From NCBI GenBank assembly GCA_963707955.1, contig OY970176.1, positions 2,208,001 to 2,272,000 of the forward strand: a stretch of DNA of 64,000 bases. Reading direction: 5' to 3'. Position 1 is the first letter of the stretch. Each line of letters begins with the position of its first letter. The notes under the pieces are model-generated. The model ran no database searches and was not told the origin of the DNA. It worked only from the letters and a program-made list of their open reading frames with translations. Positions 46,566-56,775 of this stretch are shown here, in pieces. This DNA is from Candidatus Bathyarchaeota archaeon. GTDB lineage: Archaea > Thermoproteota > Bathyarchaeia > Bathyarchaeales > Bathycorpusculaceae. Both the position numbers and the translations under genes were made by a program.

Positions 46566-47492
46566 TTGTCAAAAGTCAAGAAAACAAAGGAAGACGCGCC
46601 TCGACGTTGTGACTACATCATTACCAACTACAGAAAGGCGCGTCAAAGCATTGACCAATCAAAGCTGAAGTTGAACGACACGTCTAGAGAACTCGATGAA
46701 GTGATCAACAAGTATAGCATGCTGAACAAGTTTTGCGGCCAAGTCTCAGCGATGCCAACCGGTTCTTTCTCGCAATTCCAAAAGGCGAACCTCGAAAGCC
46801 TTCTTGTTTCTGGAGCTGACAACGCGACAATGGCCTTAGGAAGGGCGAGGGAGATCGAGAAGACCATTCCACATTTTTCTGCAGTAGTTTCTTCGGGAAG
46901 CGCACTTGTTCTTGGCATTGCTGAAATCGCAAGAAACATTGCTGAAAGCTCTGAGGACACAAGGAAACTGGTCGCAGGATGGAATCTGCCCACGCCCAGG
47001 GAAAATCAGAATGCGCTCACTTCGAGGGTTCATGAGATTGAGCCACGTCTTGAGGTTAAACTCAACGGAGCTTGGCAAACCTTGTTCGACAGAACCAAAG
47101 TTGATAGGTTTCGTCAATCTTCAAGCTCGATGAGAGAGCTAATCTCTGACACTTTACAGGTTTTGGCTCCAGATTCAGGAATACAAGAGACTTCTTGGTT
47201 TTCCCAAAACGGTCCCAACAGAAAGCCGACTCAAGCAGAGCGTGCCTACTATGCCATTGTTGGAAAGAATCCAGCGGTTGAACAAAAGGATCTGAAGTCA
47301 GCAGCAGACCTAGCCAAGAATATTCGCGAATCATATGAAAAGCTCAACAAATATACCCACGAAAGAACAAGCCATCCAGAGATAAAACCTGAGGATCTCG
47401 AAAGCCAATTGGTCAGCGTTTTCAATGAGACGCAGATCTACCTTCTGGAAATCCTCAGAATGCGAGAGAAGTTTTTCAGAGACCTAATATAG
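46566..47492 (+). CDS. Hypothetical protein with C-terminal 'predicted pPIWI-associating nuclease'-like domain
   Basis: GAWQTL...SMRELI...LAPD..I....W.....PT.AERA.YAI.G...LNKYTH pattern, recognised by eye. Confidence 0.55.
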   Translation: MSKVKKTKEDAPRRCDYIITNYRKARQSIDQSKLKLNDTSRELDEVINKYSMLNKFCGQVSAMPTGSFSQFQKANLESLLVSGADNATMALGRAREIEKTIPHFSAVVSSGSALVLGIAEIARNIAESSEDTRKLVAGWNLPTPRENQNALTSRVHEIEPRLEVKLNGAWQTLFDRTKVDRFRQSSSSMRELISDTLQVLAPDSGIQETSWFSQNGPNRKPTQAERAYYAIVGKNPAVEQKDLKSAADLAKNIRESYEKLNKYTHERTSHPEIKPEDLESQLVSVFNETQIYLLEILRMREKFFRDLI

Positions 47493-47604
47493 ACTTTCGC
47501 CCGATGTCTTTGTCATTGGCTTACGTCTGTACTGATATCCCGAACCATTTCTCATAAGCATAGAAAACTTGGATGACTGCGATTGTCTTGGCTTTGTTGA
47601 AGAG

Positions 47605-48258
47605 CTATCTTAATAGAGGTTGGATCAGTGCTCTCACTTTTTCCAGCGCACTCACGACTCCACCTACGGTAGCGACGCATTTTAGCACATTCCACGCTGT
47701 TCTGAGTATACTTCGGTCTGGATTTGATTTCAATAGCTGGCTCTTAATGGTTTCAATTTCAGCCTGATAATTCAACTTCTCTTCGTCAGAGAGTCTATCG
47801 GTTTGTCGAATTTCTTCCCCAAGCAAATCGAGACTCCGGTAAAGATTACTGTACTGATTATACACGTAATTGCCATCCCCGATCACTGTAACCCCTTGAA
47901 TGTTGGTTATGTTGATACCTGTTAGCTTCGGAGTCCGTTGGAATTTGGAAGGGCCTTCAAAATGATTAATGCCTTTATCAGCTATTCTATAAGAGACGTT
48001 CTCTGCCCTTATGGTTGCGCTACCTCTAGTTATCGGGAACGTTTTCCTTTCTTCATTTACCCAACCGCTCTGAATTAGATAGTAGAGGTTACTAGCTACC
48101 TCTTGTTCGTTGAGTCCCTTTTCCTTCAATACTTGTTTTATCTCTCTCCTTCTAACGCCCGCTCCACTCACACTTCTGGATTTTTTGTACTTTGAGTACA
48201 GATATTCCAGGATAAGTTCTCTTATTTCATCGCTAGTTCTGTCTAGGGCAAGTGACAT
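47605..48258 (-). CDS. Hypothetical protein, N-terminal wHTH-like and C-terminal helical domain
   Basis: 217-aa ORF; IRELILEYLY...EVASNLYYLIQSGWV. Confidence 0.6.
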   Translation of the reverse strand: MSLALDRTSDEIRELILEYLYSKYKKSRSVSGAGVRRREIKQVLKEKGLNEQEVASNLYYLIQSGWVNEERKTFPITRGSATIRAENVSYRIADKGINHFEGPSKFQRTPKLTGINITNIQGVTVIGDGNYVYNQYSNLYRSLDLLGEEIRQTDRLSDEEKLNYQAEIETIKSQLLKSNPDRSILRTAWNVLKCVATVGGVVSALEKVRALIQPLLR

Positions 48259-48448
48259 TTACCAGATCCGTTCCTACCAATAATGCAACTTTGCGATGGG
48301 TCTAAAATAGATAGCGCATCCTAAATCTAGATGAATGATCAACATCGTAACAGCCGGGTTTGCGACCATCATCGTATAGCGCCAATTTGATTTGGTAAAA
48401 AGTAATAAAGGGATATAAAGGCAAATCTGAAAATGACCCTGAGGCGGC

Positions 48449-49534
48449 ATGAAGTACTGGGACTGGGTAGGACGATCTCACGAAGGAATGTCCAGAGATT
48501 TCCCTAATGGTGAGGAGGGCTATAGGGCTGTTTGTTTCATTCGATCCTTTTTTGAGGGAATCGGAATCGAGGAACTACCCCGAAACCATCCGCTTCACAA
48601 CAGACTGCGTATAGGCATGGCTCCGAACTACTCATGGCTAGTACAATATGCACGAAAACTGCTCACTGCCAGTCAACTGTCAGGGTTCGAGGAGATTGCA
48701 AGAAGATTTGCAGATCCTCGGGAATACTTGGCTGCAAATGCTGAGACTGAGGTTGCTCTAAAGATGTACTTAGAAGGACTGGATGTTTCTTTTTCCAGAG
48801 TGGCCTCTCAGCCTACGTGTGACCTGACTGTGAATTTGGGTAGCGAAGTGATTAGAATTGAGGTAACTTCCCTGAATCCGCCTGATGAGGAAACGCGCGT
48901 TTGGACATTGGTCGACCAAGTTAACACCTTAGGTTTCATGAAAGAAGTCGCAACAGGTGGATTCGTAAGCAGGGTTCCATCGCCCAAAATACTTGAAGAC
49001 GTACTAAAACAAGTGAATCGGGCCATTGACGAGACTAAAGATTCGCGCAAGGTTAAGAAGTTCAATTACGAGGGAGTAGCGACAATTTATCTCGCTCCAC
49101 ATGATATGGTAGACCAGATGCCCGAGGATTCCAGACACACTCTTTGCTTTGTTCAACCTCCCCGCAAGCTTATAGAGGAGCAAATAAAAAGAAAGATAGA
49201 AGAGAAAAACAAACAACTAAAACACCACAATGAACCTGGGATACTTTTTCTTTATACGCAGATGATACGCAGACAATCAGTTTCAAAGTTATTTGAACAA
49301 CCAATGGATCATGTCTCAGTTGCATTGGCCTCTTATTCAAAGCTGTTGGGATTAGTTTTGACAGTTCCACATATGGGGATTGAAGTCGCAAACGCTGTGA
49401 AGACGGAAGACCTGAAAAAAGAGCGCAGAGGGGGTAAGCTCTTTCTGGAGACTGAAGCTGGTTCCTACCAGTACGAAAGTTCGTTACTCTGGAAGAATTT
49501 GCATGCTGACCGAGGTTTTCCAGAGAACTTGTAA
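48449..49534 (+). CDS. Hypothetical protein with restriction-endonuclease-like PD-(D/E)xK pattern
   Basis: E.EVA......G.DV.F.....PTCDL.V......IRIEVT. Confidence 0.5.
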   Translation: MKYWDWVGRSHEGMSRDFPNGEEGYRAVCFIRSFFEGIGIEELPRNHPLHNRLRIGMAPNYSWLVQYARKLLTASQLSGFEEIARRFADPREYLAANAETEVALKMYLEGLDVSFSRVASQPTCDLTVNLGSEVIRIEVTSLNPPDEETRVWTLVDQVNTLGFMKEVATGGFVSRVPSPKILEDVLKQVNRAIDETKDSRKVKKFNYEGVATIYLAPHDMVDQMPEDSRHTLCFVQPPRKLIEEQIKRKIEEKNKQLKHHNEPGILFLYTQMIRRQSVSKLFEQPMDHVSVALASYSKLLGLVLTVPHMGIEVANAVKTEDLKKERRGGKLFLETEAGSYQYESSLLWKNLHADRGFPENL

Positions 49535-50288: not shown

Positions 50289-50305
50289 GGGATAAAACTT
50301 TACCC
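50289..50305 (+). repeat. Quasi-palindromic site, copy A
   Basis: GGGATAAAACTTTACCC, preceded by GT-rich arm TTTGGGTTTGAG. Confidence 0.7.
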
Positions 50306-50399
50306 TTTTTCTCTCTCCTGCTAACTCTCTCGCTCACTCTCTCTAAAAAAACAAACAAATAAAAAACACACACACGCAGACAACAAACAAAAACACACA

Positions 50400-51360
50400 G
50401 AAGTCAGAGACAAAAACGGGCAGACTGAACGTTATCCGCATTTTGAGAAGGAAATAGGCGAAGCTGTCCTGAAGAGCGGAAGTTACGTTTCCGTTGACGC
50501 CCTAATTGACCTTGCACTCTGGAACATAGACACCTACATTATGACTAGGAAAAACAGAGTTGTAGCAGTTTTGAAGAACCTTGAAGATGACTCTCACGTT
50601 AAAACTAGGCTCTGTCAATATGAGGCTCTCAGCAACGGTAAAGGAATTGCTATAGCTAAACAGTTTTTAATCTCCAAGATTGAAGGTCAAAACTTCGTTT
50701 TTAAGAAATATGGTCTGAAACGTCTCAATGTTGATGCTAGGCATCAAATCGGTAATATTCAATTTGAAAGTCTAGAATCAGCTAGGAAAAAGCTTGTCTT
50801 AATTGAGAGCCATAATGCTAAGCTGTATTTCAACCAGATTTTCAACTTGTTTCCTGAAAAGATTAGACCTGAAAAGAGGACAGGCTATGCGGCGTAAGAT
50901 GGCTTGAACAACGTCTTTAATTTTGCGTATTATGTTTTGAAGTGCAGAGTTCATAAGACATTGTTGAAAGCTAAGCTTGAACCATACCTAGGATTCCTTC
51001 ACTCTGTTCAAGTTGGAAAGCCTAGTCTAGTATGCGACTTTCAAGAACTTTACCGCTACTTGATAGATGACTACCTGATAGAACGGTGTCAGAAATTGCG
51101 TAAGAAGGATTTTGTGCTTGTTACAGATTTTATGATGCGTCTCAAAATGGGAAAGAGGATTCACCTATGTGAATTTGAAACTAATGATTTAGCTGAAGGT
51201 TTGAATTTGCTTTTTGAACGGCATAGTTGAGATTCCAAGAATCAGGCATGGCAGTAGGCAGACTCTTGACACGTTGATTAATGAAGAGGCTTACTTGTTT
51301 GCAAAGTTTCTGAGACATGAACGGGAAACATGGGCTCCAAGAATAGCGAGCCTAGCCTGA
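50400..51360 (+). pseudogene. cas1: Solo Cas1 endonuclease; 5'-truncated, in-frame TAA (50895-50897), frameshift near 51220
   Basis: EIGEAVLKSGS, R.CQY, IES, NN.FNFAY, LEPYLGFLHS, SLVCDFQELYR; no cas2 or array nearby. Confidence 0.85.
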
Positions 51361-51514
51361 TGGAAATAAGTAGTGATATCCCGATGTGGGACTTGGCGTG
51401 CGCTAATTTGTCAGAGTCCTCTGATCTGCGCTATTCTGTAAAGTCTGCTTGCTGGGAGTAAGAATACAAAGAGTTTTATCCTCATATCTTCAACTAAGTT
51501 GGCGGGATTGATAT

Positions 51515-52174
51515 TTGGAAAAACTTCAAACAGTAAGGCCTGAACGTACTGAAGAATTCAGGAAAAGATACCATGTGCTTCTTAACATCTCTGACGAGAA
51601 AATCAATGATATACTGAAACTGGTTGATTACGGACGACTTCTGCCTGATATCTGGAAAGATAAGCGAGAGGAGGAATTCAACCGGAAGATAGCTAAGATC
51701 TGTCAATTTGATGACCAAAAAGCAAGTTTGGTCATGTCATCGATAATTGGCATTTTGCGTAATGTGAAGAAAAAAGAGTTTGTTTTGAAAAGAGAATCAG
51801 ACCTGCTGAAATTGAAGTTTAACAAAACTGAGATTGAAAGATACGGAAAATTAGTGAACACATTGAGGAAAAAAGGGGGTCACGATGAAGTCAGAGAAGT
51901 CGATCAATGGCAATCTCTGACTGCGGAAGTCTTGCCATCTTTGGCTTCTATTGAATGCTCGTTTGACATACGGTGCGGAATCAAGAAAGACCAAGTATCG
52001 ACGTATATCCCTATTGTATTGTTAAAACTCAGAGCGACGAATGAAGGAGGGAAATCCTCAGAGTTTGTATTCCAAACTGACATTGGCACCCTAAGACGTA
52101 TAACTCGCGTTTTGACCGAAACATATAGAAACTCCAGTGTACTTAGGAAATATACACTCAAACGTGAGGACTGA
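51515..52174 (+). CDS. Helical protein with C-terminal COMM-domain-like region
   Basis: LPSLASIECSFDIR...YIPIVLLKLR......EFVFQTD...LRRI...L follows the COMM beta-beta-beta-alpha pattern; by eye only. Confidence 0.5.
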   Translation: MEKLQTVRPERTEEFRKRYHVLLNISDEKINDILKLVDYGRLLPDIWKDKREEEFNRKIAKICQFDDQKASLVMSSIIGILRNVKKKEFVLKRESDLLKLKFNKTEIERYGKLVNTLRKKGGHDEVREVDQWQSLTAEVLPSLASIECSFDIRCGIKKDQVSTYIPIVLLKLRATNEGGKSSEFVFQTDIGTLRRITRVLTETYRNSSVLRKYTLKRED

Positions 52175-52182
52175 AACTGACA

Positions 52183-52656
52183 ATGCGTCTCAGTCAACGT
52201 GTAGTACTTGAAGAACCGCAACCTGTCGCAGAGCATCAGAGATGTTTTCTAAGTGGAGATAGATACATCATGGATGCAGATCTCTTGGATAATTCCAAGC
52301 GTCGCGCGAGACTAAGACGCGTGCGTGAAGTATGGAAGCCAAATCATTGGTTCCCTGATGAAAGAATATACTTGGTGCATTCAGTCGCTCCAAACTTCTA
52401 TCGACGTGGCGATACGACATGGTCTATTGTTTTAGATGAAGAAAGCGAGACTGACTTAACTGAAACAATTCAAAAGAAGCTGAGAATCAGAAAGACAGAG
52501 GCAGCAGCAATAAAGGATAAACTTTACGAGGAAATTGACCAAATAGCTCAGGCTCGGAACGTTGAACGGTTTTCCTCAAACGAAAAAGACCAGCTAGTAT
52601 TAGCAATAATCAAGACCGCTGACAGTTTGTTGAAGAAGACACTTGATACAAAGTAG
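52183..52656 (+). CDS. Hypothetical protein (alternative start ATG 52270)
   Basis: 157-aa ORF between two co-oriented genes, gaps of 8 and 14 nt. Confidence 0.55.
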   Translation: MRLSQRVVLEEPQPVAEHQRCFLSGDRYIMDADLLDNSKRRARLRRVREVWKPNHWFPDERIYLVHSVAPNFYRRGDTTWSIVLDEESETDLTETIQKKLRIRKTEAAAIKDKLYEEIDQIAQARNVERFSSNEKDQLVLAIIKTADSLLKKTLDTK

Positions 52657-52670
52657 TCGGAGGCTGGCAC

Positions 52671-53753
52671 TTGTCATCCTCGGAAGACAAGCAGTCATCC
52701 TTTGCCTATCTTCTCTTGTCATTCCTCGAAGGAAAATTGTTAGAGAAGAATATTGAGATTCCCAAATCTTCTCGTGACATTCTTAATGTAGCAGTGGATG
52801 AGGCTGTCAACCAATATGTCACTATGCATGGCAAAGATATGACGATTGAACCTTTGTCACTTTTTGAGACGGTTTTCATGCTAGGTTTGGAATTCCGCCG
52901 TAAAAATCCTCCAATCATTCTTGTTCGCACCTATCAAGTTGGTTTTGAATCAAAAAAGAAGTCTCCTTATTCAATTGTAGTAGTGCAACCACGTGTTCCT
53001 TCTCAGGATCAGTTTAGAGAAAAGGTTACCAATAATGGAAAACTTTGTATCATTAAAGAAGAAGCGGCTGAAGACATAATGCAGCAACTTTCAGAGATTG
53101 CTGAGAAGCTTGAAGAAAGAGTTGATTTTGTCTGTTTTCCTGAACTATCATTCTTTGATAAGAAAGAAACCTACGATGTTTTGAGCAAAATTGGAAAGGA
53201 AAAAGATTGTTTCATAATAGCAGGATCTTTTCACGATGAAAAGACAGAATCTAATATCTCTGTGATTTTTTCACCCCAAGGAAACTGGTTCAATCAGAGC
53301 AAAATCTTCAGATCCAAAAACGAAGGTATCAATGAGAAACCAATAGAATACTTGAACGAGTTTGATTTCCTTGAAGGAAGATTTTGTGTGTTGATTTGTA
53401 TCGATTCAGAAAGAGAGGATATCAGACAGATACTCAAAGAGAGACTGAAAGACCGCAAGTGCCCTGTGCTAGTCTTCAACCCATCACACACCGAACACCC
53501 AAAAAGGGCGACGGAGCTGCTAGCAAACAATCTCATGGTGCTGATTTCTGCGGCAATAGTTTTCTGTAATACTAACCAGAAAGGGGGTTCAACGGTACTT
53601 GTTCCTTTTGTTGAACTCAAAGATAGAAAATTCCGACTCTTCGAACTACCTCCTTCCGCCAAGACTGAGATTGGAAACGCCCAAGTTGATGTTAACCTCC
53701 TTATGGAAAATAGATTGTCAAAACAAAATGGTGTGGTTTCCATGACGAGATAA
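52671..53753 (+). CDS. Carbon-nitrogen hydrolase (nitrilase superfamily) with ~100-aa N-terminal extension
   Basis: FPELS (Glu), QSKIF (Lys), LICID (Cys) triad; IIAGS; N...GGS; GGAGG RBS. Confidence 0.8.
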   Translation: MSSSEDKQSSFAYLLLSFLEGKLLEKNIEIPKSSRDILNVAVDEAVNQYVTMHGKDMTIEPLSLFETVFMLGLEFRRKNPPIILVRTYQVGFESKKKSPYSIVVVQPRVPSQDQFREKVTNNGKLCIIKEEAAEDIMQQLSEIAEKLEERVDFVCFPELSFFDKKETYDVLSKIGKEKDCFIIAGSFHDEKTESNISVIFSPQGNWFNQSKIFRSKNEGINEKPIEYLNEFDFLEGRFCVLICIDSEREDIRQILKERLKDRKCPVLVFNPSHTEHPKRATELLANNLMVLISAAIVFCNTNQKGGSTVLVPFVELKDRKFRLFELPPSAKTEIGNAQVDVNLLMENRLSKQNGVVSMTR

Positions 53754-53906
53754 GACTGCGAGCCGTCAAGGAAAGGATTTGCGCCCGCGCAAAATCACAG
53801 ACTGAACAGTGTTATGTGTTTTTCGTTTTATGCGTGTGTGTGTTTTTTATTTGTTTGTTTTTTTAGAGAGAGAGTGAGTGAGAGAGTTAGTAGGAGAGAG
53901 AGAAAA

Positions 53907-53923
53907 GGACAAAACTTTACCCC
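53907..53923 (+). repeat. Quasi-palindromic site, copy B
   Basis: GGACAAAACTTTACCCC, followed by CA-rich arm. Confidence 0.7.
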
Positions 53924-55689: not shown

Positions 55690-56775
55690 TCATGAATCGG
55701 CAAGTTTCGTCTCAAGCAGTTCCAGTGTCTTGCTTATGCCGAATGAGCCCTTAATGGGGACTATTCGCTTTTCTTTGGAGAGTGCGCCCCTCAGCTTTGC
55801 TTGAGGAACCAATCTTCGGATTGCTTTTGTAGGCGCTGTAGAGATAACAAAAAGCTGGAGAGACCTATTTGCCACCAGAGACTCATTGATTATTGTATTA
55901 ATCTTCTCGTGCCTGAATGCAAAGCCGACGATGATGCAAATATCCGTCTGCGTGAGTTTATTTTTGAATCTGGCAAACATATCGCCGTACGGATATGGGT
56001 TTTCAGTGTTCGGCTTCCTGCCAAAAAGAACAAACTCGTTGTTTCGGTAAAGTATGGTGTTTGGCGGAACTGGAAACTGTACGGTTATCACCTCAATCTT
56101 TTCTGTCTGTTTGTTCCATACCCAGTTCAGGGAACCATGAAGCTTCGTCAGTGTATATTTTTCGCTGGATGTGGGGGTCACCTGTGGCTCCAAAGTATGT
56201 TCTAGGACCGCATACCTCAGAGCATGCCCAGACTGATCGCAATAATCCTCTATCACGTGATCATAGTTGGTCGTGAATATCTCGAATTCAGGTTTGTTCG
56301 CCATATACGTTTTCATCAAGGAAAAGAAGCGACCGTAATAGTCTTTGATATCATCGAAAAACCCTTGTTTTCGCTGATAATTTGAGAAAGTAGCGGCAGT
56401 TATTTTTTCTTCAAGAGCTCTTGCTAGTCTAACTATCTTATGCCATTCAATTGTACCTTGAAGAGGGTAAGGATGACTATCTTTTCCGAAATCTACAGAC
56501 TCTTTGTACCGTTCAAAGAAATTGTGCATGGAAGAGGCTGTCGAGAGCCGATCTATCTCAAACAGCGAATCGAGAATCTCAACAATATGTTCAATGTCTC
56601 TCACACCGTGCAATTGGCGGAGGGACGACAAGAAACTTCTCTCTTCATCCTTCAAAGTTTTTGAGAAATTTTCCATAAAAGCCTTCGTAGCAGGACAACC
56701 AAACTTTGCAGAAACCCCTGCTCCCAAGAATATTATGATGCTTTTCGAGTGTCCATTATCGACCCTAAGTGACAT
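55690..56775 (-). CDS. SIR2-like (SIR2_2) protein, putative NAD+-cleaving defence effector
   Basis: FLGAGVS..FG.P, FTTNYD, KLHGSLNW, IVGFAF. Confidence 0.85.
   Translation of the reverse strand: MSLRVDNGHSKSIIIFLGAGVSAKFGCPATKAFMENFSKTLKDEERSFLSSLRQLHGVRDIEHIVEILDSLFEIDRLSTASSMHNFFERYKESVDFGKDSHPYPLQGTIEWHKIVRLARALEEKITAATFSNYQRKQGFFDDIKDYYGRFFSLMKTYMANKPEFEIFTTNYDHVIEDYCDQSGHALRYAVLEHTLEPQVTPTSSEKYTLTKLHGSLNWVWNKQTEKIEVITVQFPVPPNTILYRNNEFVLFGRKPNTENPYPYGDMFARFKNKLTQTDICIIVGFAFRHEKINTIINESLVANRSLQLFVISTAPTKAIRRLVPQAKLRGALSKEKRIVPIKGSFGISKTLELLETKLADS

Follow-up and report, generated by a model that had tools for sequence, protein, structure and literature searches.

The stretch of DNA analysed here, hereafter called the window, comprises 64,000 nucleotides (nt) of a Candidatus Bathyarchaeota archaeon (GenBank assembly GCA_963707955.1, contig OY970176.1, positions 2,208,001 to 2,272,000 of the forward strand), and the system in question is a set of three genes, A, B and C, which lie one behind the other on its forward (+) strand. 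Gene A (51515-52174), located from the listing of open reading frames (ORFs) and the raw sequence, has a TTG start and encodes a protein of 219 amino acids (aa) whose predicted fold is COMMD-like. Gene B (52183-52656), with an ATG start, encodes a 157-aa protein of no known family, and gene C (52671-53753), with a TTG start, encodes a 360-aa enzyme of the nitrilase superfamily (C-N hydrolases); both were taken from the ORF listing. In the raw sequence, A and B are separated by 8 nt (52175-52182) and B and C by 14 nt (52657-52670), so that the co-orientation and the two gaps reported in an earlier note on this DNA, which was made from the sequence without database searches, are exact. Two motifs could be read from the sequence upstream of the downstream genes, both on the + strand: a GAGG (52166-52169) 13 nt upstream of the ATG of B, and a GGAGG resembling a ribosome-binding site (52659-52663) 7 nt upstream of the TTG of C. 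Together with the short gaps, these motifs fit the internal genes of one operon. The chosen N-termini match those of homologues (MEKLQTI / MEELETI for A and MPSIEGKQS / MSSEEHKP for C), and shorter database gene calls exist for B (128 aa) and C (338 aa). The genome around the window is a single contig of 2.35 Mb in which A, B and C each occur as a single copy, and its small-subunit (SSU) rRNA is archaeal (RF01959 at 1474 bits, the top model of its clan). Four sequencing runs carry this DNA, all freshwater-sediment metagenome contigs of one study, with no RNA run listed among them; the DNA may stem from one of the four. Since all three proteins are kept at the protein level in other contigs, as described below, A, B and C are real genes and not chance ORFs.

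The structure of the A protein was modelled with AlphaFold2 (AF2) without templates from a 17-row alignment, which consisted of 13 relatives, three closer homologues and the window protein; the COMM region is missing from two of these rows, which are N-terminal fragments. The model, with a mean predicted local distance difference test score (pLDDT) of 86.6, showed eight helices over residues 9-139, followed by three strands (142-157, 160-175 and 181-188) and a C-terminal helix (190-212). The predicted strand-strand-strand-helix end is of COMM topology, which is confirmed by the fold search. In the Foldseek comparison with the PDB, the matches listed (to rank 23) were COMMD or COMMD-like chains only; the best of them was 8f2r_B (E 3.3e-8), the template modelling (TM) score with the bacterial octameric COMMD-like protein 9q6a was 0.50-0.52, and the TMt with isolated COMM domains was 0.72-0.78. 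In the VIA comparison the top six entries were COMMD proteins. By this method A aligned with 9q6a_B over 197 residues (Z 10.3, root-mean-square deviation (rmsd) 6.6) and with 8f2r_D over 196 residues (Z 9.2, rmsd 14.2), and 8p0w_J also gave Z 9.2. The large rmsd of the full-length alignments is due to a different inter-domain pose; the COMM domain of A aligned with that of COMMD9 (6bp6_A) over 76 of 78 residues with Z 8.1 and an rmsd of 3.2. The closest fold outside the COMMD proteins was Pur-alpha (Z 5.4), and the COMM domain resembled single-strand-binding folds of the Pur-alpha and PC4 types less closely throughout (Z 4-5.4). The model and the full-length structure alignments show that A carries an HN-type helical N-terminal domain and a COMM domain in one chain.

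At the sequence level, the Pfam profile PF07258 (COMM_domain) matched residues 142-196 of A over profile positions 4-57 of 64 with an E-value of 0.035 and 14.7 bits, under the cut-off of 22.4 bits. The same profile matched 10 of the 17 members of the A family at E<=1 (best 1.2e-5), whereas each other Pfam family was matched by at most three of the 17. A search of the PDB with the 17-row profile found human COMMD2 at E 0.043 (query residues 129-206 against chain residues 107-184), and no match for A was found in NCBIfam. The identity of A to any solved COMMD protein is only about 15%, and its calculated isoelectric point (pI) is 9.5. On its predicted fold, A belongs to the COMMD-like proteins as they are structurally defined, although it stays under the Pfam score. 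The earlier note had assigned the COMM segment by eye and had described a helical N-terminus in front of it; the first reading proved correct by the AF2 model and by the Foldseek and VIA matches, which extend over the full length of COMMD and COMMD-like structures, and the second agrees with the helices modelled across residues 9-139. By homology to the solved bacterial COMMD-like octamers and decamers, the A protein probably forms a homo-oligomeric ring.

For gene C, a word-index search returned 13 proteins, i.e., the window protein and 12 homologues which are 38-65% identical, all from metagenome-type sources, one of them named "predicted amidohydrolase". An alignment of 12 rows was built from the window protein and 11 of the homologues, a 204-aa fragment (P0015) being excluded, and Glu158 (in FPEL), Lys211, Glu218 and Cys243 (in LICID) were invariant in 12 of 12 members. 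An hhalign comparison with a canonical 245-aa archaeal nitrilase (E 7.6e-6) paired the Glu, Lys and Cys residues of the two proteins, bringing FPEL, QSKI and LICID of C opposite LPEQ, QEKI and IICYD, respectively. In the PDB profile search, the Lys and Cys motifs aligned with those of Nit2 and Nit3. Glu218, seven residues past Lys211, would fit the second Glu of the catalytic tetrad. The AF2 model of C (pLDDT 74.9) was matched by Foldseek to 213 PDB chains at E<=0.001; the matches listed were all of the nitrilase superfamily, whose alpha-beta-beta-alpha sandwich fold C was found to have, and the best was Nit2 (2w1v_A, E 4.6e-12, TMt 0.65). The core is preceded by about 80 aa that include a family-specific extension of three helices (residues 10-74), which is lacking in the PDB nitrilase matches; a search of the Atlas proteins gave no usable match for residues 1-95. 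The intact Glu-Lys-Cys triad and the N-terminal extension described in the earlier note were thus both recovered, by the invariant columns, the hhalign pairing and the AF2 model.

Since the Pfam profile PF00795 (CN_hydrolase) did not match the window protein at E<=1, its membership of the superfamily is based on fold and catalytic residues. Two of the 12 members of the C family were matched by CN_hydrolase at E<=0.01, and the NCBIfam matches of C, to apolipoprotein N-acyltransferase and archaeal nitrilase, were all sub-threshold. We concluded that C is a divergent branch of the nitrilase superfamily. In contrast to the generic profile, the PADLOC defence profiles matched the family often: Drt1a and RTasNitrilase matched 8 of 12 members each, CARF_nitrilase 5 of 12 (best 2.3e-14) and RT_UG5-nitrilase 2 of 12, with the Drt1a and RTasNitrilase profiles being matched over their nitrilase part only. 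Judging by these matches, C sits nearer to the defence nitrilase profiles than to the generic CN_hydrolase profile, and it is an active-looking, putative amidase in the same sequence neighbourhood as the DRT1/UG5 and CARF-nitrilase effector domains. This is in keeping with the earlier note, which had pointed out that nitrilase domains occur in defence systems such as DRT type 1. Nitrilases need defined homo-oligomers for activity.

Gene B is the least familiar member of the set. No PADLOC family, no usable Atlas protein match and only sub-threshold NCBIfam matches were found for it; Pfam gave a single sub-threshold match of the Rho_N type (residues 111-145, E 0.0012), and a word-based homologue search returned only the protein itself, as the 128-aa call. 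When B was aligned with its three syntenic counterparts, the N-terminal half was variable and all 15 invariant columns fell within residues 96-157, a part which is helical in the complex model (about 96-157).

To see how the three proteins could fit together, a complex of two copies of A, one of C and one of B was modelled, with B as the sole scored partner. The model scored 0.75 (0.75, 0.76 and 0.69 in the three runs), compared with 0.24 for the best of three controls; in the calibration of the tool, the mark for this score was attained by 58 of 80 solved complexes and by 2 of 110 mismatched pairs, counts that hold only roughly here because the alignments were our own and the job had four chains rather than a simple pair. 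The runs had at least 56% of their contacts in common, and the pLDDT of the partner was at least 52. The confident part of the predicted interface lies between residues 110-157 of B and residues 9-70 of C, so that the conserved C-terminal helices of B are predicted to dock on the three-helix N-terminal extension of C; on both sides the interface is made up of the conserved or family-specific portion of the protein. Further interface residues of C (84, 208, 210 and 223-227) come close to the catalytic Lys211 in the model. We know of no similar complex, and it therefore seems unlikely that the complex model reproduces a memorised answer.

A scan of metagenome contigs yielded five loci, and all three of those with a full-length C relative (3/3) showed the same gene order with short gaps. 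In L002, the A, B and C proteins have 218, 153 and 362 aa and the gaps are 13 and 15 nt; in L003, they have 231, 148 and 362 aa with gaps of 4 and 18 nt. The third contig, L004, begins inside B and shows the end of B followed by C after 12 nt. The remaining two loci carry unrelated nitrilases and were excluded from the synteny count: L005 encodes an ordinary nitrilase of 260 aa and L006 a 512-aa protein with a distant nitrilase segment. The linkage of the three genes in other genomes, on which the earlier note's proposal hung, is thus seen as A-B-C in L002 and L003 and as B-C in L004. Neither L002 nor L003 has a cas1 gene upstream of A or an inverted repeat like that of the window, features which are described further below. 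The neighbourhoods differ, and the conserved unit is the A-B-C triplet itself.

The triplet is very rare. In a sample of 401 genomes from across the phylum, a full-length match to the C family and a credible match to the A family were each confined to the genome of the window (G000), and all 25 other genomes from its family lacked a match to the A or C profile. Twenty other genomes of the phylum matched the C profile by the nitrilase core only, mostly in ORFs of about 250-300 aa. Three marginal matches to the A profile (E 2e-4 to 6.5e-4) were not counted, as they consisted of 58-63 N-terminal residues inside ORFs of 176-436 aa. Peptide-pattern scans with the A and C alignments, which used few patterns only and, for A, the 8 closest rows of the alignment, found no relatives in 185,579 species genomes; the corresponding scans of viral contigs, likewise with few patterns only, found none for A or C. 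Besides the window protein, there were 12 C homologues in 5.8 billion clusters, and an exhaustive HMMER search found 13 relatives of A in 1.84 billion representatives. We concluded that A-B-C is an archaeal module of three genes which is rare and scattered by horizontal transfer.

In the window, the genes flanking the triplet form a defence island. By Pfam and PADLOC, the neighbours include an NYN-LOTUS protein, an Argonaute-associated nuclease (pP_pnuc_1 / Aga_Nuclease), a PDC-M14B-like protein, a DUF559 endonuclease, a decayed cas1, a DrmC-like PLD nuclease, an Aga-type SIR2 protein, an HD protein, a QatC-like protein and a PtuB-like HNH protein. The earlier note had placed the three genes inside such an island, and these neighbour families bear it out.

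COMMD-like proteins of prokaryotes have already been published (Liu et al. 2026, PMC13392464; structures 9q6a and 9q6c), and bacteria and archaea are reported to have COMMD-like ring proteins (PMC13392464; PMC12962969, 2026), with rings of 8-10 subunits (PMC13392464). In PMC13392464, the prokaryotic proteins were found by structure and not by sequence, 111 archaeal proteins are in the set, the function of the proteins is stated to be unknown, and no product of a neighbouring gene was predicted to bind. What is new at the present locus is the operon; an archaeal protein with a COMM fold is not new in itself. Gene A resembles the known COMMD-like proteins and COMMD1-10 (Commander complex, 8f2r and 8p0w) in its size of about 200-220 aa and in the order of HN and COMM domains, and like the genes of most prokaryotes in PMC13392464 it is a single copy; it differs from them in standing in a conserved operon with an enzyme. 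The words nitrilase, amidohydrolase, defence/defense, phage and operon are absent from the main text of PMC13392464 (its supplements may list the family), nitrilase is not mentioned in the available part of PMC12962969, and no link between COMMD-like proteins and nitrilases was found in the literature searched.

On the enzyme side, the nitrilase of DRT1 is described as the effector domain; its active form is a tetramer, it is controlled through its assembly, and no substrate is known for it (PMC13275509). The C family is like the DRT1, UG5 and CARF nitrilases in its PADLOC matches, its intact catalytic residues and its defence-island setting. In DRT1 and UG5, which belong to the class 3 UG/Abi systems, however, a reverse transcriptase (RT) is fused or adjacent, whereas none was found by Pfam or PADLOC in A, B, C or the ten neighbours scanned; the module is therefore not a DRT1 or UG5 system. 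Nor is it a CARF-nitrilase, an ancillary effector of CRISPR type III in which a CARF domain is fused to the nitrilase, since neither the window protein nor A, B or the neighbours scanned have a CARF match in Pfam or PADLOC. Unlike the nitrilases of DRT1 and CARF systems, C is a separate protein with a helical extension of its own, and its partners are a COMMD-like protein and an orphan. With canonical nitrilases (Nit2, formamidase AmiF, aliphatic amidase and PH0642) it shares the fold and the alignment of the Glu, Lys and Cys residues, but it departs from them in the missing Pfam CN_hydrolase match, the extension of about 80 aa, the sporadic distribution and the non-metabolic partners in the operon. 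In our assessment, the module joins a nitrilase effector of the defence type to a set of partners that has no precedent.

From the COMMD-like rings (PMC13392464) and the assembly-switched nitrilase of DRT1 (PMC13275509), we propose that A-B-C may be an antiviral or abortive-infection module in which a nitrilase effector is controlled by B and a COMMD-like scaffold, a reading to which we give a little less than an even chance. The nitrilase C would be the effector, and its activity would depend on how it is assembled, which is also the case for DRT1 and other nitrilases. B would act as a small adaptor or regulator that clamps the private N-terminal helical extension of the nitrilase, and B and the COMMD-like scaffold together would hold or switch the assembly state of the enzyme or the access to it. 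On a trigger, the nitrilase would cleave an essential molecule bearing an amide or nitrile group. In a stronger form, which we regard as unlikely on present evidence, the COMMD-like ring would be the sensing or scaffolding core of an undescribed archaeal antiviral system whose nitrilase effector is recruited through a dedicated adaptor. The basic pI of A and the weaker likeness of its COMM domain to Pur-alpha and PC4-type folds leave room for direct nucleic-acid sensing, which the ring may perform. The earlier note had suggested that a COMMD-like scaffold coupled to an amidase in a defence island could be a new defence system; the fold, the linkage, the setting and the type of effector have stood, while the antiviral role, the ring of A and the coupling of A to the enzyme are matters that we infer.

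At this locus a COMMD-like gene is joined to the genes of an enzyme whose chemistry can be recognised and of a small adaptor whose interface is predicted with confidence, and the operon is a concrete system and a testable clue to what prokaryotic COMMD-like proteins do. If the stronger form of the proposal is true, it would provide the first function for any prokaryotic COMMD-like protein, and it would point to the organisation of an immune or stress enzyme complex, instead of membrane trafficking, as the original role of the COMMD fold; on the bolder reading, the operon would be the first functional context for these proteins. The locus would also add a third setting, free of RT and CARF, for the poorly understood defence-type nitrilase effectors.

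Several observations weigh against the antiviral proposal or the models behind it. Contacts of B (residues 55-58 and 96-101) with the HN domain of A (residues 43-78 and 129-133) appeared only in the full model with C, and when an unrelated protein was put in place of C, the score of B against the remaining chains was 0.00; that control had not been set up to probe A-B binding. What links A to B and C is therefore gene order alone. The alignment of B had 4 rows only and its pLDDT was about 53, and about 50 residues of the C model, mostly within 274-330, had a pLDDT below 50. The synteny comes from three metagenome contigs that are related in sequence, with C 38-65% identical, so that few independent lineages stand behind it, and it covers close relatives, the distant relatives of A (P0022-P0027, 20-26% identity) lying outside it. 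Moreover, the module of L002 adjoins HerA-like, NurA-like, NUDIX and threonine-synthase-like genes, which form no clear defence island; a small winged helix-turn-helix (wHTH) protein is also among its neighbours.

Part of this evidence would suit a module with no immune role, namely an accessory metabolic or protein-modifying amidase complex, in which B and the COMMD-like ring serve only as a scaffold for assembly or localisation, while C either acts as a hydrolase on a small amide, carbamoyl or N-acyl compound or deamidates a protein. Metabolic enzymes (Nit2, formamidase, aliphatic amidase and beta-ureidopropionase) are at the top of the structural matches of C, its weak NCBIfam matches are to apolipoprotein N-acyltransferase and archaeal nitrilase, and the NUDIX hydrolase and threonine-synthase-like genes beside L002 would agree with such a role. 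In the available part of PMC13392464, prokaryotic COMMD-like genes have no established immune role, and those of Myxococcota cluster with secretion-system genes. The very patchy distribution of the module, which is missing from all 25 other genomes of the same family, speaks against this explanation, as do the defence island around it in the window and the fact that the C family matches defence nitrilase profiles more often than CN_hydrolase; moreover, the window, L002 and L003 share no conserved transporter or pathway genes. We consider a non-immune amidase complex rather unlikely. Chance neighbours or over-called ORFs, with a COMM likeness produced by structure prediction, would explain why the Pfam COMM_domain match of A stays at 14.7 bits against a cut-off of 22.4 and why the alignments are shallow (17, 4 and 12 rows). 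All three proteins, however, are kept in order with short gaps in other contigs, the COMM signal is found by sequence profiles as well (10 of 17 members, and COMMD2 in the PDB search), and the fold match has a Z of 10.3 against 5.4 for the next unrelated fold. By these synteny, Pfam, Foldseek and VIA results this account is already largely refuted, and we give it hardly any weight.

The triplet might also be an addiction module of the toxin-antitoxin type carried on a mobile cassette, with C as the toxin, B as the antitoxin that binds it and A as an accessory regulator; the flanking inverted repeats would mark the cassette, to whose maintenance the module would contribute. B is small, its N-terminal half evolves fast, and it is predicted to sit on C near the region of Lys211 (C residues 208, 210 and 223-227), as an antitoxin might; in addition, inverted repeats of about 90-100 nt that are unique in the genome surround a 3.4-kb segment with the triplet, and the neighbourhoods in the window and in L002 are different. 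Yet no transposase, integrase or recombinase lies in or beside the repeats, L002 and L003 have no comparable inverted repeats, and three genes that include a conserved 219-aa protein of ring type do not make a classic toxin-antitoxin layout. Such a module is in our view improbable; it overlaps with abortive-infection defence and does not exclude it.

The inverted repeat was located by sequence comparison and BLAST. Its left arm (50290-50392, about 90-100 nt) and its right arm (53819-53922), which starts 66 nt past the stop codon of C, with no strand assigned to either, bracket the cas1 remnant and A-B-C. The BLAST core of the repeat is 71 nt long with 94% identity, and it occurs at only these two places in the 2.35-Mb genome. 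The repeat is of low complexity, with CT, CA and A/T runs, and the T-runs in the right arm might act as an archaeal terminator behind the operon. In the family scans, neither the segment between the arms nor its flanks gave a match to a transposase, integrase or recombinase, and public contigs simply break at both arms, with no joint across or inside the repeats.

Directly upstream of A, and outside the conserved module, lies the decayed cas1 (50391-51362, + strand), recognised by Pfam and PADLOC Cas1 matches and by translation. It is truncated at its N-terminus at the repeat arm, carries an in-frame stop at 50895-50897 and is frameshifted near 51225; two ORF pieces match positions 64-180 and 188-270 of the 283 positions of the Cas1 profile. 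Several other cas1 fragments are present in the genome, and Tandem Repeats Finder detected no tandem array suggestive of CRISPR repeats in the window. A casposon, i.e., a cas1 gene with terminal inverted repeats, was considered for the segment and rejected, because this cas1 is truncated, interrupted by an in-frame stop and frameshifted, and no polymerase, transposase or integrase is found in the segment.

The last 110-130 nt of the broken cas1 (window 51231-51362) recur at seven other places in the genome with 69-93% identity (G000:C1, about 2026827, 2272430-2272506, 2284306-2284415, 2295576-2295707, 863024, 206311 and 77185). Two of these seven are solo fragments that lie 25 and 36 kb downstream of the triplet, with 93% and 89% identity, respectively, and public contigs share only 51242-51342 of the cas1 end and then diverge. 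The recurrence looks like an att-type duplication of a cas1 3' end, which would make this end an integration hot spot from which the island is built up.

A 16-nt quasi-palindromic motif with a consensus close to GGATAAAACTTTACCC gave 6 matches at 5 sites, compared with 0.5 expected. The sites are at 50290, 53907, 55427 (palindromic), 62562 and 63776, all of them intergenic, and the motif might act as a promoter in the island or be bound by a protein.

Among the neighbours, the Argonaute-associated nuclease (Aga_Nuclease) and the Aga-type SIR2 protein lie within 46566-49534 and 55690-56775, and no PIWI or Argonaute match was found in the neighbouring proteins scanned. Between the two is a 361-aa ORF (48449-49534) of no family.

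The two best non-self matches of the C profile in the phylum sample were giant ORFs. One of them, 1413 aa long, comes from another genome of this order (L024, G228:C31, 2179-6420); its C-terminal nitrilase domain matches CARF_nitrilase (2.1e-14), RTasNitrilase (1.8e-11) and Pfam CN_hydrolase, and about 1000 N-terminal residues are without a family. The second, in G023, is an open frame of 1572 aa that matches the C profile. These giant nitrilase ORFs may be further uncharacterised nitrilase-effector proteins.

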